From positions 59,712,862 to 59,776,861 of the forward strand of contig CM074511.1 in NCBI GenBank assembly GCA_037379345.1: a stretch of 64,000 nt of DNA, in the 5' to 3' direction. A model generated the notes under the pieces. The model searched no databases, had not been told where the DNA came from, and saw only the letters and a list, made by a program, of their open reading frames with translations. This document shows positions 3,001 through 63,752 of the stretch, one piece after another. The stretch is from Perna viridis. Lineage: Eukaryota. A program made the position numbers and the translations under genes. Within the stretch, counting starts at the first letter, position 1. The number at the start of each line of letters is the position of its first letter.

Positions 3001-3485
3001 ATATGATATATTGTGCCGACCAGATTGGAATAAAAGATTGGCAACCAGCTAATGAAAAAACACATCGATTTTACATAGAAATCATACACAACCCTCCAGT
3101 TTGCCCCGGGACCATAAAATATAACAATAGTCAAGTATTAAGAATATAGAACAATAGTCAAGTATTAGAAAATTCATAACAAACCTCCAAAATTTTCTAA
3201 GAGGTGTATATTATTCGAACAAAGAGTATACCAAGTTTCCTTCATTCATCGGCATATATTTTCTATTACCTTTTAAAAGAGTTCTTTTATCGTTAACGAA
3301 ATGGTATCATACATCAAAGAATCATGAAATAATTTGAATCTTGTGGGTTTAATCCAATGTATTAGACTTTTTATGACATTCAGTTCCATAAAATCAGTGT
3401 AAATAAACTTAAATGTAACAAATGAAAACTATTCCATCTGTTAAATTGATAATTTGTTTTTAAACCAATGTTTATCTTTTCATCG

Positions 3486-4000
3486 ACACGTGCATGTCCG
3501 GGTGTCAAAAGAATAGGTCTGCAGCAGCGCTAAGCTTGTCGTAAAAGGCGACTAAATAGAGCTCAGAACCCTAGCCGGGGACTAGGGCTCTTTGCCCACA
3601 GAGCAACTGGGTGGGTGCCCCAGGTGGTGGAATGGGGTACCCCTGGTGTGTTACATGCTGGGGTTGTCAGGCTATAATACGGAAAACCTGACCGCAAACC
3701 CTAGTGGTGCACCGTGTTGGGAAAGATGCCACGTTCCTCGCACGTTAAAAACACCTACTGTGGTATTCTCCCAGAGTAGGAACCATAGGGCTCCACCACA
3801 GGAGGCTAAATTGCCCGACCCTACCCACCTCTCCCTTTTTCCAGTGGCAATCAAAATTTCTCGATCCCATTGTCCTTGTGTCCCGTCCCATTTTTCATTT
3901 CATCATCATTTCATGTTCATTTTATCATCCACTTCATGTCATCGCCTGAATATAGCTGCAATATTGCTGCTCGGGCGTTAAACACCAACAAACAACAAAA
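3486..4000 (+). mobile_element. Full-length structured SINE-like / non-autonomous retroelement with non-tRNA head, Deu/Nin-like central motif and simple-repeat tail
   Basis: GC-rich island in AT-rich DNA. The first ~175 bp recur at 32189-32360. Contains gcacgttaaaaacacc (resembles the Deu/Nin SINE core GCACGTTAAAGAACC, from memory). Ends ...gaatatagctgcaatattgctgctcgggcgttaaacaccaacaaacaacaaaa, a LINE-derived-type tail with (aac/aaac) repeats. Many stems: ccctag/ctaggg, gggtgcccca/tggggtaccc, gtcagg/cctgac, cctact/agtagg. Confidence 0.8.
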
Positions 4001-7000
4001 CATATCTCATCTATTTTCCCGTAACTGTTACGTATACGATACCCATGAAGTGAAAATGTGTACAAAAACATTGAAATGTCATCAACCTCGAGAATATAAC
4101 CCGATGTCATGACTTTGATTACGATAAACTATAATTTACCGGAGTGTAAACAATGAAAAATGCTTGTCCTTATAAAAGGGAACTGTTTCTTTAAAACGAC
4201 GCCGTTACAAGCTTCAAACGCGATAAGATTTGTAAATATATAAATCAGTTTTCTCATAATTAAAAAAGATATTGTTTTATGTTAAAATCTCCAAACTCTG
4301 TATAGAAATGCCTAAAATAAATAAACTTAAATCGAAAACAAACGAAGTATTAAAGTTATAGTACATGCATACCTGCATGGTGTAGCCGTAGATTGGGTAT
4401 GAACTGGTATGATCAGAATACAAAAATATTTTAACCACATGATTATGTATATTCGTGCACTGTATAAAAATAAAAGAAACTAAAATTCCAACCCGAGATC
4501 GTTTTTTACCGGTCCTGTCGCGAAACATAATTCTTCCAACTACATTTTTCGTCATTTCAATGACGTCATCATTGCAATATGAGTAGACATTTTCTACCAT
4601 ACTTACATTTGTAGTTTTACAACGCGTGTACCATTTATCTAGTGGATATAGAAATAGTTTAGTTGTTTTTTTCTCTTAAGCCAAAAATGCAAATGTTTCG
4701 AATTCTTGACCTAATTCAGACATGGCCGACCTCGATGTGAGGCAACCACCAACGAGTTGAAAGAAAAAAATCCAGCTTTTGTCGTGGTATATTAATTTTT
4801 ATTCTGCATTCCTCAAATTATTTTCCATAATCTTTGTCCATGTCCACTAGGTTTTCTATTGTTCAGAACCTCTACAGAATACCTTGTTGTTAGGTATAAA
4901 ATTCTATGGTAAGTTACATGCAGAGATTGCTATTGTCTTGCGACTCCCTGCTGTGGATTATCAAAAATTGAAGAGACTCAAGTGAAAATCACAAAATAGC
5001 TGTATCATCTTGTATTAATAAAAAGTGTAGAAAATAACGAAGTTTTATAACCGTGTCAGATTAGTGACTACAATACCATTAGATAGACAGAACTCCTACT
5101 TATACTTGCTCTGGGCACACGCATATTGCCAAGATTTAATCTCAAAGACCAACGTATTTGGTAGTCGAACAAGTTGACGGAGATATGCACTGATACATTA
5201 TTAAATCGGAAAATCATTTTATGATTTGCATGTTTTTTTTTCTTCAAAGGGAACGTTAGTGGGATATTTATGCAATACAAAATAATATCCCTCTAGTCAA
5301 TTTTTGTAGGGTATGCTAACGATGTCGCGAGCTGGTCATAAACATACCGATTTTCTTTGAACTTTTACAAAATCATTATCAAATCAATTCATAATCCTAA
5401 AATTTTGTAAAAATGACCTTGGCAAATTTCCCTTTTAGTAAATGTCTATTCTGTTAACTTTCAAACAAGAATATTCACTTCGAACGACTCATTTTGCTTA
5501 TCATTGTGTCGTAAGAACTAGTGCAACACCTACCGAGTAGTGTACAAATTAAGCTGAAAATATTAAAGATAATTGACATAATAATGGGAAGGAAAATATT
5601 GATTATTACTTTGTAAGTGAACTAAGTTGAATTACAGTATTGCTAAGCTTCCAATCCCACTCAGCACTAAACCCCGTCCCTATATGTAGATAAATTCGCA
5701 GTCTTAATGGTTGTTCTCACGTCTGTGAATGTTTTCCTATTCGTAATAGCAAATGTAATTTATGGAGTGAATCGATGCTGATTTCCACGCCTTAAACATT
5801 CCAAGCAATAGTGTCAAATACAAATCTTTCGACAGAACAAAGTTTTTTATCCTTCAAATTGTCTATTATTGTTTTGTATAAGGGCATTTGTTTATCTGTG
5901 GAGCGACTTCCATGTGGCGAGATCAACTTAGAAGTTGGTCTCCGAATTAGTTGCCAACATGGTGGAGTGTGCAATAAAACAGCATTCAAATTACATGTAT
6001 GTGTTAAAGCGTACCTTACTCGTTTATGACATGTATTTAAAGCGTATTAATATATTCTTCCAGACTATTAAGATTTAGATTCATACATACGGATGTAGTC
6101 TCGTTTTTTATTCATAAACAACATTTTAACATGTCTTCACACAAATTTCAAATCAAATGAAAGAAAGCACACACAGGAAATATTTAAAATTGTTAGACAA
6201 GAAACTGTGGGTTTTGATAGTGACCATGTGGATGAGGATGCAGGATATTCACAATATAAAACGATGTTGTCCACGGTATGTTTCACTTTACCCCTGGGTC
6301 TTTTTTTATTCTTTTGGCAATGTTTGTCTATAATTCGCGTCCATATGGCATTTTTTAATTTTGTATAGAAAGCTAACAAGCACGAGGCATTTATAAAAAA
6401 AAACGATTCGAAGTCGTTATCATACATGTATAAGTTTGGGGTGACTTAGTATCTCCTGTGGTATATATTTACATACATATATGTTAATCTATAGGCGTTC
6501 AATTTATGTTTCACGAGGAAAACCTTGAGCAGTTAATGTTTTATGATGATCTATGTTATATTGCATAATAACAGCATTTTGATCATCAATATAAAATTCA
6601 TAGCTCTATTAGAATGTTTGTATTCGGTCTTAATAAGTGACGTACGCGGTTTCCTTACGCAATGTATAGAACATTATCACAGAGTTTTATCGGCTGGGTC
6701 ATCAACTCTTCTGATAGTCTAAGAACAGCTCTCTCTCTAAAGGACATGCATCACTGAAATATGCTTATCAAGAACGAAAAGTTTGTAATACTCTATTATT
6801 ATATTCATTTTTATCATGGTAAATGTGTAATAAATAAAATTATCTGCTCAATATATAAGTTACATATTAAACCAAATTAAGAACCACGTGGGGTATTTTG
6901 TTTCCCACGATTCCTAGAAATGGTTATATTTTGTGTTTTAATGGTATATTTCAGCCTTTTCATAAGATTCCGTAGACTTCGATACAATTATCTCCTTAAA

Positions 7001-9033: not shown

Positions 9034-9229
9034 TCAGGGCTAATAGTGTTCAGTGGATTCAGAGTTACACTCAATCAGGGCTGAAAGTGTTAGCTGGAAT
9101 CAGAGTTACACTCAATCAGGGCTGAAAGTGTTAGCTGGAATCAGAGTTACACTCAATCAGGACTGAAAGTGTTTGTTGGAATCAAAGTTACTTTCGATCA
9201 GGGCTGAAAGTGTTTGCTTGAACCAGAGT
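9034..9229. repeat. 41-bp tandem minisatellite, ~4.7 copies
   Basis: Unit cagagttacactcaatcagggctgaaagtgttagctggaat. Central copies are near-identical and the outer copies diverged. Confidence 0.95.
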
Positions 9230-10278
9230 GGCTGTTTCTGTGTTTTATTTCTATTGTTGTGGGCATTCGGCAAAGTGTTCTCGACTCAGCCTTTTAAGGT
9301 TTTGTTGCTTTGATACAGATAAATTTGTGGTCTAATTTTGAATCCGGGATGATTATAAATTTGATATATTCCAATTGTTTCGTGTAATGTACTTGAAAAA
9401 TAAAACAAAGAATACTCTGGGAATTTCACATTTAACTGAAATGGGTGGTTTCGTATTAAACCATGCACCTGGAAAAAATTTGCCATTTACAACGGAGCGA
9501 GTTTTACAAACCACTTTGGTATCTTAAAGCATGGGAATAATAGATATTGGCTGACCTGAGAGATTCCGAGGGATTTTAATATTGTACCTCCCAGTTAGAA
9601 TGCCATAATCACAGATAAAGAGACTATAGCTCTAAGTATATCACTTCAATTTACCTACTGTTGATAGTACAAACGTGCACAATTTCTGTAATTTTATGTC
9701 ATAATATTGTGTGATGACTGGAATGTTTTGATGGGACACCGAATTAATTTACATTTTATCTATTTAAGGTATCCCAAGTGCAAAGTTTTTGACTATTCCA
9801 GAAGCTTTTAAAATGGGACGTTGAAATACGGTTTTATTTGAAAACACTTTTATTGTGATGTTGGAAACAGGTACTTTACACCATCTCTAGTCATATACAT
9901 AATTTGACCTGGAGTGATAGATCTAGAAATTCTGTAAAAAGTTTTAGTATACTGCAGGTAGATAGTATATACTTTTGTTTTCGTTCTATCTGGAACCTTT
10001 TAACATTCTGATCTCCGATGAACATATTGCACCGTTACCGACACTTCCACCAACTTCTACACATTAGAATTAATCCTTAATTGGAGCTTTGCGGCAATAG
10101 CTTGCTACACTGCAGTTAAAAGGTTGTAGGCATCTTTTCTGCATACAATCTTACCACAAAGACAAGGAAACTTTATTATAAAAAATGTGTATATTTGAAT
10201 AGGACTTTTTTCAAACATTTTTAAGACATTTCAAAGGCCTTAATTTTGATAATATCTAATCTTCCAGAACATTGCTGT

Positions 10279-29000: not shown

Positions 29001-30330
29001 GATTTTGGTTGAAGACATCGATATTTTAGATACTTGCATGTTATATGTTACTTTCTGATTGGAAAGAAAAACGAAAAGTAAAGAAGCCCTACTGCTCATA
29101 TACAAACAATGATAAACATTATCAAAGTTAGATTTTATCTTAACTACTTGTCACAGAACGATGTAAACTTCTCCGCCTCAACCCACCTGAAAATTAAATA
29201 AAAAGGGTTCTTCAGATACATTAATATAGATATCTCACCACATCAGCGGGTACTTAACAAAGTTTGGAATTTGCTTATTCACTTAAAGTGGCTCACGGGT
29301 AGCGGTCAAGAGGGACTATCTAAAACCGCTGAGACTAAACATCAGTTATTATCATATTTACTTGAAACCTGTTTGAAGGACAAAGCTGGTAAAGGAATGT
29401 ATGCTTCACTCGTATGTAAATGTTTGTTACCCTTCACAATGGCGATAGACAACTCAATACAAAATCTCGACATCCAGCTGCTGAAAGAATTTGATAAGTG
29501 GTTATTTAAAGTAGAGTGTATTACTATTTGTATGAGTAAACGTACGTCACTTAGTAAAACTCGTCCTTCAAATGACCAAAAAGTATGCAATGTCATTTTT
29601 CATCTAAATTTTGCAGGATTAGAGGCTTAGATAGAAACGCAAAAGTAAATACATTGAACATATCTGTGGTCTATATACATGAAGTCGAAACATTACCATA
29701 TAGACCATGAAAATGATCTCTTGAATACCTTGCAAAAAACTCTCAACAAGTGATCAATAAGTGCTTAACATTATTTATATTTAGACTTAAAGACTTAATT
29801 TGTTCATTTATTCCTTATCCTTGCGTTACATAATCGAGAAGAAATGACTTACTGGTTAGTTTGGTTTGCATAAAAAAAGAAAAAAATTCCAGCGTTGCTC
29901 ATTTCTTAAGAAAAATGAATCTGGTATAGTCTGGGCCAGTTTTCGGTAGACACTTTCCTTCTTTTAGAGTCCCACAACATGTAATTAAAATTGTTTTGTA
30001 ACTTTGAGTATCATCGAATGTATTGAGCAAGCCGTAATATGATAGCCCTATCAGCATGTGTAGTTGTTATACTTTGAATACATTTTATATGTCTACAGTG
30101 TACTTTTATATCAAACGTGTTTTTAAAGGAAGGACTGAAACCATTCTTCAAACATCCATTGGATGTGTTTCCTGAAGTAGCCGAAGTTCTGTCAGATATT
30201 GCCTTTCTTTAAAGTGAGTTAAAATGAGAAGAACAAAACAGAACCAGGAATGGAAGAAATACAACAGACGTTGAAGAGAAGATATCTGTATACAAAATAG
30301 ACCAAGAAAAAAAAAGACGAAAAATGATGA

Positions 30331-31015
30331 GAAATCTAGGGATAAAACAGAACCGGGAATACCAAACAGACAACAGGCGTCAAATGAGGAGAAATTTATG
30401 AACAAAACAGAACCAGCCACATCAAACAGACAACATACGTCAAATGAGGAGAAACCTGCGGACAAAACAGAATCAGGAACACCAAACAGAAAACAGATGT
30501 CAAATGAGGAGAAATCTATGAAAAAATATTACCAGCCACACCAAACAGACAACATACCTCAAATGAGAAATCTATGGAAATACAGAATTAGGAACACCAA
30601 ACAAACAACAGACGTTAAATGAGGAAACATCTACGGACAAAACAGAACCGTAAACACCAAACAAACAACAAACGTCAAATAAGGAGAAACATATTAACAA
30701 AACAGAACCAGCCACACCGAACAGACCACAGATGTCAATGAGGAGAAACATATTAACAAAACAGAACCAGCCACACCGAACAGACCACAGATGTCAATGA
30801 GGAGAAATCTATGGACAAAACAGAATCAGGAACATCAACAAGACAATAAACGTCAAGTGAGAAGAAATCTATGAACAAAACAAAACCAGCCACACCAAAC
30901 AAACCACAGACGTCAAATGATGAGAAATCTATAAACAAAATAGAGTAGGGTACAACAAACAGACAACGGACGTCAAATGAGTGGAAATCTAGAGACAAAA
31001 CAGAACCAGCTAATC
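30331..31015. repeat. 60-bp tandem repeat, ~12 copies, with two alternating variants
   Basis: Unit approx gaaatctatggacaaaacagaa(ccagcc/tcagga)acaccaaacagacaacagacgtcaaatgagga. Copies at 30331, 30391, 30451, 30511 and onward. An exact 59-bp duplication lies near 30686-30803. Confidence 0.95.
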
Positions 31016-31053
31016 AAAACAACTTGGTATTTTTCAGCAATATTACACAAAGT

Positions 31054-31315: not shown

Positions 31316-32188
31316 GACGTGTCAACTTAACCCTATAACCTTATTGCCAGTTTAAGGTATCAATTTACGTTATTCATCACCTTCATGGAATCTCGTCATA
31401 AATTTCATGTACCTTTGCCTTCAAGTTACTATTTCAAATATGATTCTTTTTTTTTAAATATAAAATCCAATATATAATTTATACACAGTTAAGGTCTTTG
31501 TTAGTTGGGTACTATTAAGTAGACCATCTTTCACAGAATATAATCGAAGTCTTTAATATAGTTAATCTGTTAATGAAAGGGTCATACGTCAAGATAAATC
31601 GTATATTCAACATTTCTATTACATACTTATCTCTTACAACCTAATGATTTTGTTTGGAATTCTGAATATGAAAGCCCTTGCTGATCTTCGACACAAAGAA
31701 TAAAGGATCATATGCATGCTTCAATGACATTAAAGAGGGGAGTATAATTACAGAGGAAAAACATCTTTATAAGTTAAATTCTACCAGGATTGTATGGCTA
31801 ACATTTTTTTTTAAATAAGCTTCATACCTATTTTTATGTTCAAGGTTAAGCAGGAGCAACAAGGACGGAAAGGAGAATATTTGCACCGCAAAGGGGACTT
31901 TAAAACGACAACAAAATTAACAAAGTTTGCTTCTTGAAGGTTTTCAGCCTACCAACATACATAAACCTGAATCACAAATAAAGGAAACGTGGTGTATAGA
32001 GACATATAATTGATATATTAAATTTATGTCTCTTTATTCTGTATTATAGGTGAAACATAAGACTTCCGGTCTGTGTTCTCCGTCTAATGTCTTTTAAGCA
32101 GACCAAATTATTATCAGTATTTTGTATTTACTTTTTGACTGCACGAAATTATATTCAGTGTTTTTTTGGTTTTTTTTAAATATATCAG

Positions 32189-32360
32189 CCCCGTGGGGGT
32201 CCGGGTGTCAAAAGAATAGACGCGCAGCAGCACTTAGCTTGTCGTGAAAGGCGACTAAATAGTGCTCAGAACCCTGGCCTGGGGCTAGGGCGCTCTGCCC
32301 ACAGAGAAACTGGGTTGTGTGCCCCAGGTGGTGGAATGGGACACCACTGGGATGTTTCAT
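32189..32360 (+). mobile_element. 3'-truncated second copy of the structured SINE-like element (head only)
   Basis: Colinear with 3486-3657. Shared blocks include gtccgggtgtcaaaagaatag, gcttgtcgtRaaaggcgactaaatag, gctcagaaccct, gcccacagag and gtgccccaggtggtggaatggg. Confidence 0.9.
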
Positions 32361-39822: not shown

Positions 39823-40244
39823 GGGCCAATATGAATTAAACCAGGGCCAATACGACATCATAACTTCCGGTCGTTTTGAGGCCATTTTGAGGTAGAATTG
39901 GATTTCTTGAACTTTGATTACCAGGACTAAAAGCTGCAGAAACACACAAAAAATATTCCATTTTATACAAAAAGGATATTTAAGACTGATTAATGCAAAT
40001 GAACCTACTTGTCTTTGGTAAAAACCGAAAACAACTGTTCTACAAATCATCTAGTAGAGTTGGTTAATAAAATTGTCAATAAATATGTAATTTCATATTG
40101 GCCCTGTTATAGGTTTCGGTCAATCATATTGGCCTCGGCAGCCGTATTGGCCCTCGGCGATGCCTCGGGACCAATACCACCGCCTCGACCAATATGACAG
40201 ACCTCAAACCTATAACAGAGCCAATATGAAATTACATATTTATT
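39823..40244. mobile_element. Crypton/MITE-like element: 167-bp terminal palindrome plus an upstream partial arm copy
   Basis: 40078-40116 pairs with 40206-40244 (39 bp, 1 mismatch), with further inner arms and apex ctcggc-gat-gcctcgg. gggccaatatgaatt at 39823 repeats the arm motif. Confidence 0.7.
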
Positions 40245-40250
40245 AACATA

Positions 40251-41053
40251 TAATATTGTTAGCGACTTCTTGTATATTCGCTTATGATTTGCAAAAATAT
40301 GTAATCATACGTCAAGTAATGCTGCAGATCCTCGCCGTTTTTACCGCCATAGCGTCATAGTTTTAACTTAATACGAGATAAAAGTGTACCTCTTGAGTAT
40401 CATACACGTGTGCTCTGCGTGTGTTTCTTGCTTGTACGAGAACGGGAAATTAACATGAAATGATCGGTTAGCTTTGAACATTACTTAGTTTCCGATTCAG
40501 GCACTAGGGTTCGTTACAAGACTATATTGGTGATTTACATTAGGACGCCCCGATATATATGAATATTTATTGCCAGTTGTTTAATCTGGTTCCTAATATG
40601 GTTCACTGGTCAATATCATAAGCGACCCAAAGATCGTTACAAGGTACCTCTTTTAAAAACATATCATACACACGTCTATGCGTGGTTTTTTTTTTTTTTT
40701 TTTTTTTGCTTGTATGAGAACTGGAAGTTTACATTAAAAGTGATAAAAGTGATCGTTTAGCATTGACTTTATGTAATATTACCCAGTTTCCGATTCAAAC
40801 ACAGGCGTTCGTTACGATTGACTATATAAAGGGCATGTATATTATCAGGACCCCGATATTTATAAATAGCCATTGCCAGTTGTGTAATCAAACGAAAGAG
40901 TACGCAATCATATCAAGGGAACCAAGATTTTAGCGGAAATCACCTGGTTTTAGAGCACATCGCATTCGTACCATTTCGGATGTTGAAAGGGAAGCCAAAA
41001 TCAGTGACAGTGAATATTTGACGATTAGCGACTTTGAGGACTTCAGCCTTTGA
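40251..41053 (+). mobile_element. HINE/Helentron-like family A, near-complete copy with internal ~270-bp tandem units
   Basis: ttagcgactt at 40259 and 41025, the latter followed by a small stem-loop (gaggac-ttca-gccttt). Internal unit starts gcttgtaYgagaac at 40430 and 40708. Reverse-complement homologous to 43837-44743. Confidence 0.75.
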
Positions 41054-41096
41054 TTTAGTGGTTTACTCATTGAATTATGATGCTAAAATTAAATTA

Positions 41097-41252
41097 TAAG
41101 GAATGACTGTTATATTCTTTTGGTCTGTTTGAAATAATCTCAATGCCCGTGGTGCACACTTGAAAATAACCTACTGCTCATGTTATTTAGTGTGCAACAC
41201 GTGATTGAGGTTATTTCTTCGTACAGCGAAAACATATAATAGTCATTCTTTT
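41097..41252. repeat. ~155-bp imperfect palindrome (MITE/Crypton-like)
   Basis: Nested arms: gaatgactgttatat/atataatagtcattc, gaaataatctcaat/attgaggttatttc, cgtggtgcacact/agtgtgcaacacg, aaataac/gttattt. Confidence 0.85.
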
Positions 41253-43836
41253 AATGCATAGAATAGTACACGTGTCCATTCCCTTGCATTGCAATTTTGT
41301 ACTCGACAACGATTTAAAGATTCGATAGTACTAACCTAGTGTATGTATGTTTCTGTGCCTGTTGGCGAACGGTGCATTGTCTATGGAATGTTTAAAGCAC
41401 AAGTCCTAGGAAGTTGGTACACGTGTACACGAAATTAGTAGCGTACAACTTTTTCAAGCCGTTTTCGTAATAAAAATGAATACACATTCTTGGGAATTGA
41501 ATAGAATAAAAAAAAACAACAAGCTACAGCAAGGTCATTGAGAATACGTCAACGAACCTTGAAAAAGAACAACAATGATATCGAACAACTATGGTAGATA
41601 TATAAACGGTTAACACTAGAACACTAGGGTTCAAATTTACTTATTGACATAGGGTTAGATCTATTAGTTATCTGGAACCCAGCCTGACGTTTTACGACCC
41701 ACTAAATGTGTAAAAATGGTGTAACAACTCCGGTTTGTGATGAGTATCTTATTAAATCTTGACGATAGGATCGCGCTGGTAATGGACCAGTTAATCGGCA
41801 GGAGGCTTCCAAAACTATGGACTTGATAGATAAATTTGTGAATTTAAATTAAACGATACTATCGAAAAAGACATTGTTATTATATATTTTTGTTATTAAA
41901 TATGTGTTTGAAATATTATCTGGAAACACCCATTCGTGTGAACTTAACTTTGGTATTTCCTGATATTAATGGTATATATAGTTTGTAACGAACCACTCAA
42001 AGACGAACCAATAATTTTAAACACATACATGGAAGCGAAAAGGGTACTTGTTAGTGAATTTTTTACTCTTGAATGGACGAACATTAAGAAGAGGAAATTA
42101 TCGAACATATTTATAATAATGTAATACAATGTGTGACCTACAAAACACAAATCAATATGACCATTGAAAAAAAAAAACGAAACAAAAATAATTTCTTTAG
42201 TAAATGTATTATTATCCGATCAAATATTTGCGAACCTTACTTGTACAGCGAAGAGATAAAAAGGATGAGTGAATAATTTTGAAGAATAGTGTATCTTCTT
42301 TATGAATAAGAACCAACGCAATTGAAGTAATCTTTGAACACGTTTTATTATTTGTTCAGTAGATGCCCTAATTTATCCAATACAACAGCATACTCTTCCT
42401 AAATCATCCCGTCTATATTGACTAAGCAATATATCACAGACGTCCTTGGAGTAAATACTCTATTAGTATGGACCACCACTTCAGATCTACACGATGCTAT
42501 TGTCTCAAACACGCGACTGTTGAAAAGTTAACAAGATAGTTTAAATCAGATAAAATGATTGCATTCCTCGCCCAATGTAATAATTAATTGTAAAGACGTC
42601 AATACACAAAACTAGTAAATTGTAGTATCATGATGATTAGCGCCAGCCATAGTTCATGAATTGGCTCTTTAAATTAATACAGACTAGTTGCTTGTCTTGG
42701 CGACATCAATATGTCTTCCAGTAGAGTTCCTATCTACAGCAATAATAAGCAACAAACAGATAGTTTCAAATGGTATTTTAAGATCTTTATCACCTTTGAA
42801 ATTAAGGTTGAAGGGGTTGTCGGGAAGTTCTAAGAAAGGTTATTTCTCTTTTTACTTCATGGCAGACATCCATAAATGAGGGTTTTCTTTTTGGACAACT
42901 CATAAACATGCCTGTCAACTGCAGTATCGATGATTATCAACACGGGGTGCTGGAGTACGCATTAAAGAAGGTCAAAATGGGTACGGCAATGTCACTTTAC
43001 TAAGGTTATTTTTATGTTATTTGTCAAATACCTGTTAAATTAATAAACGACATCATAGTATTCATTGTCCGAATATAAGGACGCTTAGAACTTTACTTCG
43101 CCGGTGATAATTTTATTAAACATACGGAGATATGAAAAGCAGTAACCGAAAATTTTGTAGATAAAGCCGATGAGAGACAGAGAAACATATTCTGTTTGTT
43201 TGTTTTGTTTGTTTATTTCCTTCGTAGTTTGCATTTCTTACTTAGCCGCTCCACTACTTATTTCAGAATGTGACCTTTATTTTGAAATATCTAATTTTTG
43301 TTGTTTTTTTTTGTTTTGCTTTGTTTGAGAAAGTGTTACATATTCGTTTTTACCTACTACATGTTATTGAAAGCCCCTGGTTAACACTATTATTAACAGG
43401 AAGTCTCTATGTGTAAACGATGACCTTACAACGCTTTAATACTGCACTGGTCAAGGGCTAGTCTCCTTTGAACTTTGGAGACTCATAACACCAAAAGGAA
43501 TATGTCAGAAAAGAGACTTTAATGCAAAATAACCAAGAGTAACGTAAGCTATTTCTGTCTCCATTGATAAAAATCTTTTAATGTGACACTAAAATCACTT
43601 ATCAAATAGTAATAGACAACCTTGAGGTCCATGTCGATTATTTAGGGAGGAAATTATTATCTCTGTTACCTCTGTTGACACCATCCTATGTTGAAGATTT
43701 ATACTACTCATACTGTAGGTCGTACATTGCTTGCAAACTGTCAAACATTATTAACCGTGTATGTATGCTTTGATGATGTTGAAAGTATTCAAGTTTTATG
43801 ACCGAAGTAACTCCCAGGCATTTAAGTGAAGTCTTC

Positions 43837-44743
43837 AAAGATACTGAAGTCTTCAAAGTCGCTAAACGTCAAATTATCTCGGTCACTCTTTTTGGCTTCA
43901 AAGCAATTCTCAACAGTAAATTAAACCTACATGTTCTAAACAAACACTGTCTTAAAACTCGAATATCAACTTTGATTTTAAATTAACTTTTTAGTCACTT
44001 GTTACTATTCTCTGGTCTCTGGTCATTCATTTTGGCTTACTTTCAACATCCGAAATGGCACGAATGCGATATGCTCTAAAATCGGGTGACTTCCGCTATT
44101 ACCTTGATTCCCTTTATGTCCCGAATGTTTTCAAATACCCGGAACCAGATAAAACAACTGGGAATGGTTATTTATAGATATCGATGTCTATGACCTATAT
44201 ATGGTCAATTGTAAAGAGCCTGTGTTTTAATCGGAAACTGGGTAATATAACATAAATTCAATGTTAACCGATCGTTTATCTTTTAAAGAAAACCTCCCTT
44301 TCTCATACAAGCAAAAAAAACACACACATAGACATGTGTATGATATTTAAAAAAAAAGAGGTACATTGTAGCGATCTTCGGGTCGCAATTGATATTGACC
44401 AGGGAACCAGATTAAACAACTGGCAATGAGTATTCATAGATACCGGTGATGATCTATATAGTCTTGTAAACGAGCCCCTGTGCCTGAATCGGAAACTGGG
44501 AAATTTCAATGTCAATTTTAACCGATCATTTCATATAAACTTCCCGTTCTCATGCAAGCAATAATCACACGTAGATCACACGTGTTTGATCTTTAAGAGG
44601 TATATTTTTATCTCGTATTAAGCTAGAACTATCACGCAATGGCGTTAAACACGGCATAGATCTGCAGCATGACGTGGAGTATAAGTATATAATTATGCAA
44701 ATCATATGCGAATATAAAGTACTGAAATTACGAGTGCAAGAAG
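43837..44743 (-). mobile_element. HINE/Helentron-like family A copy, inverted relative to 40251-41053
   Basis: subTIR aagtcgctaa at 43856. 44030-44115 is the reverse complement of 40913-41000, and 44141-44743 is the reverse complement of 40261-40889. It has one extra ~140-bp internal duplication (ggtcaYtcWttttggctt at 43881 and 44021). Confidence 0.8.
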
Positions 44744-45060
44744 AACGGGAAGTTTACACAAAATGATCGGATTGCATTGAACATTACCCAGTTTCCGATT
44801 CAGGCACAGGGGCTCGTTCCAAGACTACATAGGTCATTTACATTATCACGGCCCCGATATCTATGAACATTCATTGCCAGTTGTTTAATCTGGTTCCTAA
44901 TCCGGTTCACTGGTCAATATCATAAGCGACCCAAAGATCGCTGCAACGTACCTCTTTTAAAAATATCATACACATGTCTGTGTTTGTTTTTCTCACTTGT
45001 ATGAGAACGGGAAGTTTACATTAACGATAAAATGATCGGTTAGCAGTGAATTAATGTAGT
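44742..45060 (+). mobile_element. Partial family A internal unit fused head-to-head to the previous copy
   Basis: agaacgggaagtttaca...cccagtttccgattcaggcacagggg... matches 40437-40780 directly and is the inverse of 44250-44550. Confidence 0.85.
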
Positions 45061-54904: not shown

Positions 54905-57160
54905 GTTACAGTACTGGTGGAATTACTGCAAATACCATCAATGTCATCAGCCTAGGCCATCCATCATCATGTGTTTCGACCCCTAGCTCGGTACACTTTC
55001 AGGATGGGGGTCCACAGTGGTCTCTCTTCATCCATATCCAGCAAGACGCTTTCTCTGCAGCTTGGCCCAGTTTCTGAATCTCTGCTTTTCTTTGCCGGCC
55101 AATCACTCCTACTGCATAAAACAACCCTCCACATCGACTGTGCAGGGAAGCCTCTACAGCCACCCTCAACAGGAAAGTTCCATGTTTGCCATCCTCTACA
55201 GTTCAACATACTTTGCCCTCTTTCTGTCATATGTTTCGCCACATCTCTGTCACAGGAAACAGTCAGCTCTATAATTACAACCTTTACAGCCGGAAGACCA
55301 GAGAACCATGTCTGGTCTAAGGTTAGTTGGTACAATATCAGGAAATTGCAGCTTTTTGCCTAGATCTACTTCTAACAGCCAGTCTCTTACCTGATTTGAC
55401 ATTCCTGATTTGTTCTCATTACTTTTCTGACATATTTCCCCCTCCTTCACAAACAGGATCTTGATAAGTTTGTTTCTAGTGTGTTTTGCATCTTTCCTCT
55501 GTATCTCTATCACTTCAGCAAGTTCCCGAAGTACTTGGTTGTGTCGCCATGTATATCTCCCCTCTGTGTATCCTGAAAGTACATGTTGTCATATTCCTCT
55601 GTTTCCGCACAACGGACAATCTGGTGTTTCTGAATGTTTCCACCTGTGCAGATTTTTAGGTAATGGTGACACGTCATATACTGATCTTAGAAGGAATTGT
55701 AGTTGGTATTGAGGATATCGCCATATTTCTGACCATGTAAGGGATCGTTGTTCTACTTCCCATTTCGACCAAGCACCTTGGCTCCCTAATTCTACTATCT
55801 TTGCTTGTCTGTTTTCTTCCTCTCTAGATTTCATCTCTCTTTGAACTAGACTTCGTCTCTCTTTGGTATTTTTCAAGCAGCAACTTTTCGATGTTCAAAT
55901 GCCCTGTCTTCCCACTGCCACTGTTCTTACAATATCTTTATGCCCTGATCTACTCTCTGCCTCTGAAACTGCTTTGGAGGCTGACCACTTCCGTCCTGTT
56001 CTTACTTGGACATCTGCTGTTCTTACTTTGTCATCTCTAGATTATATCTGTATCATTACAAGGCGAGTTTTGCTTACTTTGAATTCTTCAATTATTGATG
56101 TTAATGGTAGCTGCAACTTTGCTGATCTGTTGTACAGTCCTACAGATATAAAACTTGGATAGATACCTAACCATTTCCTTAGATGTCGGTTGATGGTTCT
56201 TTCAAGCTTCTCAAATTTTGTTAATGTAATTTCGTACAACATAAGTGGCCTTGATATTCTTGGCAGGAGTCCATGTTGGTATATCCATGCCTTTAATTTT
56301 CCTGGTAGACCTGTCTTGTCGATGTTCCTCATTCCTTCTGAAACCTGTTGTTCGATTCTCATGATATTGTTCTTGTCATTTAATGAGTCATCAAACCACT
56401 TTCTTAAGCACTTGATGTGATTATCAATTATTGATGGAATGACTTCTCCTTACACCTTCAATTCAACTTGGTGTGTGCTCTTCCCTTTTCTCATAATTAG
56501 AGCTCTAGATTTCTTTGGCTTAAAAGCCATCCTTACCCATGTTACTGTCTCTTCCAAAGCCACATCTAGCCTGGACATGGGTATCAGTAGTGATGGTAAA
56601 ATCGTCCATGAACCCTCTAGTTGGTGGTTGCCTAATGTTGGTTGATGTTTTTGGGTCTCTCTCTCGATTTAACTAGCATATTCATTAACATGACAAACAA
56701 GGTAACTGAGATGGTACATCCAGTAACTACTCCTTTTTGTAGTTTCTGCCATGTTGTTGTAATTGTGCTTGTTGTAAAACGCAGCTCGATTCCACTAAGA
56801 TAACTTCTTATTACTCTCTTAAAGTGGTCTGGAATATGGTAATGATCTAGTGACTCCTGTGTCAGCATGTGAGGAATAATGCCATAGGCGTCGGCCAAAT
56901 CTAACCATACTACTGTAAAATCTTTCTTGTTCACTTTGGCCTCTTGAATCAGTTGTGAAATGATGCTTGTATGTTCAATGCATCCTGAGAATCCTGGTAC
57001 CCCGCATTTCTGTACTGAAGTGTCTACATAGTTGTTATCTGTCATATATGATGTAATCCTTCTGGCCATGATAGAAAAAAAAAATTGTTTCTTATCTCCC
57101 TCAGTATTGATCTTAGCTCATTTAAACCTTCTTTATCCTCCTCCTTTGCTCTTCTGTATT
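54905..57160 (-). mobile_element. Decayed R2-group non-LTR retrotransposon, HERO-like (RT, zinc knuckle, restriction-like endonuclease)
   Basis: RT: VQKCGVPGFSGCIEH, VVWLDLADAYG, GVVTGCTISVTLF and FMDD at 56601-56612. Then GLPGKLKAWIYQHGLLPRI, CPLC..QHVLS and RYTWRHNQVL, and the endonuclease RPDMVLWS..IIELTV..FPVEGGCRGF. Many frameshifts and stops. Confidence 0.92.
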
Positions 57161-63200: not shown

Positions 63201-63505
63201 AAACATATTACACAACAATACACACCTAAAAGATCAGAGTACCGTCTTAAAACAGAAATTAAAAAAATGATTATAAATTACACAAATTCACAAATAAAAG
63301 ACTAATAATAGTTATCTGACACACCGGCTCTAGACCAGCCTAAATTTACAAAAGGTTATGTCCTCATCGTATGAAATATCAATCCAAATTCTTCTCATGC
63401 GGGTTTGAGAACTACGGTACACAATAAATCATACAAAAAGGACACAACCCATGCCATTCGTAAACTACGGAAGCCCATTAGTGCAAGCTGTTCACTTATT
63501 TTTAT

Positions 63506-63752
63506 GTCGTTATAACGACTTAGTATCTCGTTTAAACGACTTAGCTATCTCTTTTAAACGACCTTGCATCTCCTCGTTTAAACAACTTAGTATCTCGTCG
63601 AACAGCATAGCTAACTCGTTCAAACGACTTCGTACCTCGTTTAAACGACATAGCTAACTCGTTTAAACGACATAGTATCTCGTTATAACGACATAACTGG
63701 CGTTGTTAGTTATATCGTTTAAACAAGTTAGCTGTGTTGTTAAAACCAGATA
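63506..63752. repeat. 21-22-bp tandem array of a palindromic core (tcgtttaaacga / tcgttataacga) that flips orientation
   Basis: About 9 forward units such as ctcgtttaaacgacatagctaa, then 2-3 inverted units (gttagttatatcgtttaaac) after ~63700. Confidence 0.85.

Follow-up and report, generated by a model that had tools for sequence, protein, structure and literature searches.

An LP-type SINE in the Perna viridis window

The window, that is, the whole stretch of 64,000 nucleotides of Perna viridis DNA that was analyzed, contains two copies of one short retroposon on its forward strand. The first, a full-length, decayed LP-type SINE of ~515 bp consisting of head, body and a tail with CAAA-type repeats, extends over positions 3485-4002, and the sequences at 3474-3484 and ~4002-4011 suggest a degraded target-site duplication (TSD) around it. 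The second, at 32188-32360, is of an older G-C subfamily type and its body stops after ~170 bp; its head (32188-32266) carries the same module of pseudoknot and hairpin. The two copies are 86% identical (3489-3612 versus 32192-32315). Both had been recognized in an earlier sequence-only reading of the window, but the first element starts at 3485 and not at 3486 as stated there.

The family comprises at least 8,300 copies in the Perna viridis genome; exact matches to the hairpin motif of the head numbered 8,326 in the 723-Mb genome, as compared with 0 for the reversed control. When the window copy was compared with its own genome, 40 of the 40 scored candidates, which are part of 5,696 first-look candidates, matched it at 93-100% over ~515 bp. 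The copies terminate in CAAA-type repeats and carry TSDs. In places (G000:C1, 3.33-3.55 Mb; L324, L326) this SINE is densely nested, copy within copy, and lies beside LINEs. A tRNA-derived (SINE2) identity was rejected, since the 64-kb window yielded no tRNA gene and the SINE copy L005 no site resembling a B box when up to 2 mismatches were tolerated, in agreement with the earlier statement that tRNA A and B boxes are absent.

The element shares the traits of the LP SINEs described by Matetovici (2016, PMC4758252): it is short (~515 bp), has variable TSDs of 9-15 bp (30 of 45 copies) and a tandem-repeat tail, lacks a tRNA head, and carries, in the same position, a head of the same length (~70 bp) that is homologous to Nimb-17_LMi. 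The head sequence can be found in the "Nimb-17 homology" rows of Suppl. Fig. S2 of that work, as compared by eye. According to the same source, such a ~70-bp head is common to mollusc "LP" SINEs, scallop MESC SINEs, Nimb-17_LMi, I-3_DR and RTE-9_CPB. The bivalve SINEs covered in the consulted part of PMC11481361 are tRNA-headed only. Like Sgl_LP, the Perna viridis SINE contains a probable Nin-like body motif: GCACGTTAAA, at 3739-3748 on the forward strand, also occurs in the Lottia Nin-domain row of PMC4758252, a short match that can be taken only as a hint of a link to the Nin domain. The family is thus an ordinary new LP-SINE family whose head module was already known as sequence. The head had been presented as unclassified in the sequence-only reading; this holds insofar as no Rfam match exists, but not for the sequence itself, which was published as the LP head.

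Predicted fold of the LP head

The LP head (3485-3563, forward strand, as are all parts given below) is supported by covariation, by searches with a model of the head and by comparison with Suppl. Fig. S2 of PMC4758252. In the predicted fold, an H-type pseudoknot precedes a hairpin domain. The 5' strand of stem S1 (3487-3490), which reads CCCG in most of the family but has decayed to CACG in this copy, pairs with CGGG at 3499-3502. A single hinge U at 3491 forms loop 1 and is followed by the 5' strand of stem S2 (3492-3498), which pairs with 3516-3522 over 7 bp, every one of which covaries. Loop 3 (3503-3515) consists of a variable 5' part, of up to ~140 nt in other families, and of the conserved AGAAUA at 3510-3515. 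The second domain (3526-3563) is composed of stem P3 (3526-3532/3557-3563), a GCNU/UAAA internal loop and the hairpin GUCG-UAAAAGG-CGAC at 3538-3552. The same order was observed across lineages: S1 of 3-6 bp, one U, S2 of 7 bp, 0-2 nt, the 3' strand of S1, a variable stretch with AGAAU(A/U) and the 3' strand of S2, followed by a linker, the variable P3, an internal loop of GCNU/UAAA type and the hairpin GUCG-URARAGG-CGAC.

Several elements of this fold had been noticed before. Stem A of the sequence-only reading is S2, and it is perfect in the family majority (TGCAGGTC/GGCCTGCA); the GTCG..CGAC hairpin is also real. The loop of stem A had been considered invariant and devoid of a pseudoknot partner, which proved incorrect, because its CGGG pairs with the 5'-terminal CCCG. 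Stem B, corresponding to P3, is present but variable, with at least 5 bp in only 11 of 19 lineages; in a fixed register it is 56% paired (swap control 110/2,000), and it is reduced to at most 2 bp in three of six viruses. Single-sequence folding, performed without pseudoknots, was unremarkable (z -0.6 to -2.2).

Covariation and conservation

Among 233 distinct hairpin matches, which include many related copies, AGAAUW was found upstream in 182, and the knot could be fitted to 122 of these 182 as compared with 333 of 3,640 shuffles. With one row per lineage, S2 was paired in 110 of 133 cells, as compared with 75 on average and at most 95 for swapped strands; in this test the anchors were set by sequence, and 19 of 20 lineages were anchored, two of them wrongly. 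When 19 sequences were aligned with MAFFT, pairing reached 93% in S2, where double changes occur at 7 of 7 pairs, so that all seven S2 pairs covary, and 89% in S1, of which one pair covaries. For these 19 sequences the covariation score was 0.456 versus 0.182 for shuffles, and 0 of 500 shuffles reached it. These comparisons of aligned sequences show the LP head to be an RNA fold under selection. The earlier proposal of a structured, deeply conserved 5' module that is not derived from a tRNA is supported.

That the hairpin is invariant follows in large part from the way the sequences were collected, with a hairpin search pattern, and a scallop family in Suppl. Fig. S2 of PMC4758252 has a bulged hairpin variant together with a 7-bp S2. 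The earlier impression that stems change while loops stay unchanged turned out to be weak within the genome: among 47 copies chosen without regard to the hairpin, mostly best BLAST matches and hence young, 72 of 2,066 stem positions (3.5%) and 24 of 1,081 conserved loop positions (2.2%) differ from the majority. In the window copies, 6 of 12 changes not attributable to the subfamily break a pair, and each copy has several pair-breaking changes relative to the family majority. The A-T to G-C swap between the two copies, also noted before, marks a real older subfamily, with 27 G-C copies as compared with ~0.8 expected under independence; genome-wide counts at this pair are 5,778 A-T, 27 G-C, 54 A.C and 30 G.T, where CpG decay can also convert G-C to A-T and thereby link the two states.

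Occurrence in retroposons and LINEs

In animal-associated metagenome contigs, at least 122 stretches contain the motif at the head of many SINE families, some of which have a tRNA-like part behind it; in one SINE family (L117, L169, L182, L187) the module stands immediately before a tRNA-like head. The LP head also starts a full-length LINE, L282/L413, with ORF1 and an ORF2 that bears an APE domain. The sequence-only reading had mentioned a GTCGTAAGAGGCGACTAA motif at retroelement 5' ends of other invertebrates, and this is borne out by the metagenome SINEs, by LINE L282/L413 and by rows of Suppl. Fig. S2 of PMC4758252. One of the two LINE loci (L413, 509-6630 of G001:C4) is a full-length animal-type element within an assembly that is labelled as the genome of a bivalve gill symbiont, and is probably host DNA. 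Seven loci in MAG or symbiont assemblies are apparent animal retroposons, being either short and repeat-tailed or, in one case, an entire LINE, and no bacterial occurrence is therefore claimed. Short, ~190-bp retroposons that consist of the module and a short tail (L278 93-290, L283 60-236, L173 and L281) were found in bacterial MAG contigs and a metagenome contig; the TTAAC-like sites at which several of them lie hint at a target preference and at MAG contamination. Two tandem heads joined right after P3 occur in L135 (1370-1520) and in one scallop row of Suppl. Fig. S2 of PMC4758252. This junction suggests template switching onto a short head-only RNA; no TSD was found around the tandem heads of L135.

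Three variant patterns used to search the Perna viridis genome for an LP-headed LINE gave the SINE family only (70 loci examined). With ORF1 of the LP-headed LINE as query, the same genome yielded an intact LINE family that encodes APE, RT and RNase H domains, and its ORF2 is 51% identical to that of L282/L413 over 1,226 amino acids. The head of this family fits an HDV-like descriptor cleanly (P1 of 7 bp, P2 of 8 bp, P3, L3 and a CUAA strand), and 24 of 25 copies begin 6 nt before a U. This intact, young family (L325, ~802-960; also L294-L324 and L326) has an ORF1 of 485 amino acids, an ORF2 of 1,225 amino acids (APE, RT, RNase H) and a 5' end that fits the complete HDV-like fold. We take this family to combine an I/Nimb-type protein set with an RTE/Baggins-type head. 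Since related LINEs carry either the LP head or the HDV-like fold at the same offset, the two heads are alternatives at one position. Neither the head nor the tail of the HDV-like-headed LINE matches that of the SINE, so it was not taken as the mobilising partner of the SINE.

Occurrence in viruses

In viral contigs, nine stretches match the hairpin and seven of them hold the whole module, representing six distinct viruses; the remaining two (L095 and L099), in which neither AGAAU nor the knot is present, were regarded as chance matches. In all five distinct RNA-virus contigs, the module lies on the sense strand 4, 9, 22, 72 or 99 nt after the last stop codon, and 27-119 nt separate it from the contig end. 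The Pfam domains encoded upstream are RdRP_4, RdRP_3, Peptidase_A21 and Capsid-VNN; the fifth ORF has no Pfam match and, by eye only, looks polymerase-like. In a DNA virus of 212,482 bp the module is intergenic (L093, 1454-1529), ~120 nt after one stop codon and ~150 nt before the next ATG. Its presence in the 3' UTR of five unrelated RNA viruses, in addition to a large DNA virus, argues that the module acts as RNA.

The viral S2 was paired in 41 of 42 cells, a value reached only by the true order among 720 strand permutations, and a model built from 13 non-viral heads scored the six viral loci at 37-71 bits, as compared with at most 26 for controls. One virus (L091) has a second, cut-off copy of the module downstream, with compensatory changes. 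Relaxed viral patterns gave no new knot-bearing member, the extra matches being due to chance; no relatives of two of the viral polymerases were found, and blastn against a phage collection gave three chance pieces only.

The 5' end follows the knot

TSDs were mapped in the 45 own-genome copies that passed strict head and tail patterns, out of 102 motif matches, the other 57 being set aside. Of the 45, 30 have a TSD of at least 9 bp. Position 1 of the SINE lies 6 nt before the hinge U; the TSD abuts it in 21 of these 30 copies and falls within 1 nt of it in 27. The same flank boundary was observed in 37 copies of other families, in which the first base is mostly A or G and loop 3 has 4-140 nt, the classes with a long loop 3 being represented by only 4 and 2 copies. 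With a loop 3 of 4-140 nt and a constant boundary, the conserved motifs stand at no fixed distance from the start. The bases around the boundary also vary across lineages. Because the boundary is constant despite changes of the first base and insertions in loop 3, the start follows the knot and not the conserved sequence motifs, and we infer that the LP head defines the 5' end after transcription. Position 1 is G in 33 of 45 SINE copies and looks untemplated in 6 of 21 flush junctions; a G added in this way may stem from a cap, in which case position 1 would be a genuine transcription start.

Comparison with ribozymes and nuclease-resistant RNAs

A comparison with Rfam 15 gave nothing relevant: no ribozyme family matched the window at the gathering threshold or 20 loci at E values of up to 10 or 1, in a comparison that would miss novel permutations. 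Hammerhead, twister, twister sister, hatchet and hairpin ribozymes were rejected, as none of these families is among the Rfam 15 matches, in line with the earlier exclusion of hammerhead and twister. An HDV-like ribozyme, with its nested double pseudoknot (P1-P2-P3-L3-P1.1-P4) and its catalytic C in J4/2, was rejected as well; even a loose descriptor, to which the other LINE head conforms cleanly, failed in 5 of 12 lineages and fitted the other 7 in unrelated, inconsistent registers, with no Rfam match. The absence of a consistent HDV fit in these 12 lineages agrees with the earlier view that the head is not an HDV nested double pseudoknot. The LP head resembles the HDV-like ribozymes of LINEs (R2, RTE, Baggins/LOA, L1Tc) in its 5' position, in the strand order of P1/P2, which equals that of S1/S2, and in UGUCGU and GACUAA, which look like the L3 and J4/2 strands. 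In contrast to these ribozymes, it has no P3-L3 domain between S2 and S1, no P1.1 and no C in the strand before the 3' strand of S2, and the look-alike strands are paired in the downstream hairpin.

In the pistol ribozyme, the loop of a hairpin pairs with a downstream strand to form a pseudoknot, and the junction reads UAAAUAG. A hairpin followed by UAAAUAG is also present in this one SINE family, and the head had been compared with a circularly permuted pistol ribozyme. The comparison fails, as the hairpin loop has no shared pseudoknot partner in 16 lineages, TAAATAG occurs in this SINE family only, the UAG being variable elsewhere, and no GU cut site is conserved.

Viral xrRNAs (flavivirus class 1; dianthovirus, polerovirus and ST9a; coremin) are similar to the LP head in being compact, pseudoknotted, located at the start of viral 3' UTRs and sometimes tandem, and they would set a sharp 5' end, as is proposed here for the LP head. 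The location agrees: the module is at the start of the viral 3' UTR in five of five RNA-virus contigs and intergenic in the DNA virus. As for a ring of backbone around the 5' end, a pseudoknot is present, but loop 3 is expandable. The LP head further differs from these xrRNAs in lacking a three-way junction and the coremin sequence, from ST9a, as described in the consulted part of PMC12397905, in lacking a T-loop and a long apical pseudoknot, and from all of them in residing in cellular retroposons, where none had been characterised as of PMC8374639, according to its consulted sections. A described xrRNA class was rejected on the basis of the absence of an Rfam match, the differences from ST9a and the absence of the motif strings from the survey text on coremin (PMC10520033).

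The main text of PMC4758252 contains neither the word "pseudoknot" nor the occurrence in viruses; the fold, the covariation and the viral copies are absent from its consulted parts. That paper proposes a Pol II promoter role for the LP head and asks for experiments, and in its consulted parts a ribozyme is raised only by analogy to L1Tc. PMC5786205 provides background on bipartite elements and 5' ribozymes. The motif strings are absent from the text and supplement of PMC10085705, motif drawings apart, and the openly available text consulted on xrRNAs, ribozymes and LP SINEs (outside Repbase, subscription journals and figures) makes no mention of the fold or of viral copies. In the literature thus searched, the LP head is known as sequence and is undescribed as a structured RNA shared with viruses.

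Possible function of the LP head

We tentatively favor the explanation that the LP head is a putative roadblock to 5'-to-3' exoribonucleases of the Xrn1/Xrn2 type, an xrRNA-like action proposed by inference only. SINE and LINE copies would be transcribed within host Pol II transcripts. Once such a transcript had been decapped or cut, the nuclease would degrade its leader of host sequence and come to a halt 6 nt before the hinge U. The remainder would be a SINE or LINE RNA, promoter-independent and exact at its 5' end, which a LINE ORF2 protein could then copy back. In viruses, the stall would leave a non-coding 3' RNA of 90-190 nt, similar to flavivirus sfRNA. The hairpin domain may dock on the knot or bind a protein, and so stiffen the knot.

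A roadblock is favored because a single action would explain both settings, tolerates tandem copies and needs no conserved boundary bases. Consistent with it are the 5' end tied to the knot, the position in viral 3' UTRs, the second copy in L091 and the tandem heads in L135; xrRNAs are typically found in the 3' UTR and in tandem arrays, according to the consulted parts of PMC8374639. Given the position in RNA-virus 3' UTRs, a roadblock also fits better than self-cleavage, ribozymes of linear RNA viruses being reported in UTRs before ORFs or as tandem pairs, not singly after the last ORF (PMC13725137, in the sections consulted). On the other hand, plain frameshift-type pseudoknots fail to stall Xrn1 (PMC10321173, consulted in part), so the putative resistance would need tertiary contacts, and a loop 3 that takes insertions of ~140 nt cannot form a tight ring by itself. 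Only 0-2 unpaired bases lie 5' of S1, no known xrRNA architecture is matched, and only six distinct viruses were found, with none of their relatives. The swap with an HDV-like fold, at the same place and with the same 6-nt offset, fits self-cleavage equally well. The first base, which is not always G and looks untemplated at some junctions, likewise counts against a roadblock.

The first alternative, albeit an unlikely one, is a self-cleaving ribozyme of an undescribed class with a putative cut just before G1, by which the element would be released from read-through transcripts in the manner of the HDV-like ribozymes of R2, RTE and L1Tc. The LP-headed LINE L282/L413 and the HDV-like-headed LINE, with ORF2 proteins 51% identical, both start 6 nt before position 7, UGUCGU and GACUAA read like the L3 and J4/2 strands of an HDV-like head, and the SINE copies have sharp 5' ends. 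However, a cut at the module would sever the 3' end of five RNA-virus genomes, tandem modules are retained in L091 and L135, the bases of the would-be cut site are unconserved across lineages, and there is neither a consistent HDV fit, nor a pistol pseudoknot, nor an Rfam match. UTR ribozymes can occur in linear RNA viruses, as reported in the consulted sections of PMC13725137. We consider somewhat less probable still a protein-binding element that recruits translation or tailing factors, with the 5' end set by a separate start signal; in viral 3' UTRs it would serve as a stabiliser or as an enhancer that works without a cap, and in LINE and SINE RNA as a translation device or for the capture of ORF2 protein at ribosomes. 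Such binding could account for a hairpin and flanking loop that are identical from animals to viruses among the matches, for the failure of three relaxed patterns to give a variant viral member with the knot, and for the presence of the module in 3' as well as 5' UTRs and between genes of a DNA virus. Yet the invariance is partly built in by the search pattern, the scallop family of PMC4758252 has its bulged variant, and 5' ends that track the knot across 140-nt insertions are left unexplained.

The remaining two explanations have much less in their favor. According to the published LP hypothesis, the head would act as DNA, as a putative internal Pol II promoter with a secondary role for the fold, and we regard this as improbable: the module is present in RNA viruses without a DNA stage, its stems covary, and the distance that separates its conserved motifs from the start differs by more than 130 nt. 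What speaks for a promoter is the head position, where the module replaces or precedes tRNA heads (PMC4758252; the L117 family), and the G at +1, which may be untemplated; the head could also combine two roles, as Pr77 of L1Tc is both promoter and ribozyme (PMC8256844, consulted in part). Very improbable, in our estimate, is that the knot marks the end of reverse transcription in retroposons, or is an ORF2-protein site for second-strand synthesis, with an unrelated use in viruses. Such a mark would equally yield sharp 5' junctions, and probable RNA contigs that cross the boundary weakly indicate that read-through RNA exists, but two separate functions would be required for one conserved fold, and the head is common to different LINE clades (Nimb, I and RTE; PMC4758252).

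Wider reading and other features of the window

On balance, we lean towards regarding the LP head as an undescribed mobile RNA device, the first cellular xrRNA or a new ribozyme class, that is swapped with HDV-like ribozymes, would spare SINEs a Pol III promoter by trimming from host transcripts, and has passed more than once between retroposons of animals and RNA and DNA viruses that are unrelated to one another. Retroposons of shellfish and of other invertebrates, a LINE, a large DNA virus and five unrelated RNA viruses share the fold; if the reading is true, they would offer a rare example of transposons and viruses exchanging a non-coding module. The fold bears on the origin of 5' ends without a tRNA promoter in LP SINEs and some Nimb, I and RTE LINEs, a question left by the consulted text of PMC4758252 in 2016, and on nuclease-resistant RNAs in cellular genomes, posed as a question in that of PMC8374639. 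Both questions become testable with a fold of 80 nt whose boundary is predicted.

Other repeats were observed in the window. Large nested inverted and direct repeats, with arms of up to 205 nt that are ~4 kb apart, occupy 40074-45057 and are transposon- or foldback-like. A 60-bp A-rich tandem repeat at 30231-31051 could encode a 20-amino-acid repeat, and two open frames on the reverse strand at 56042-57117 look, by eye, like reverse-transcriptase fragments of a decayed non-LTR element. A MITE-like palindromic repeat is located at 63502-63698 and a 41-bp minisatellite at 9034-9238.
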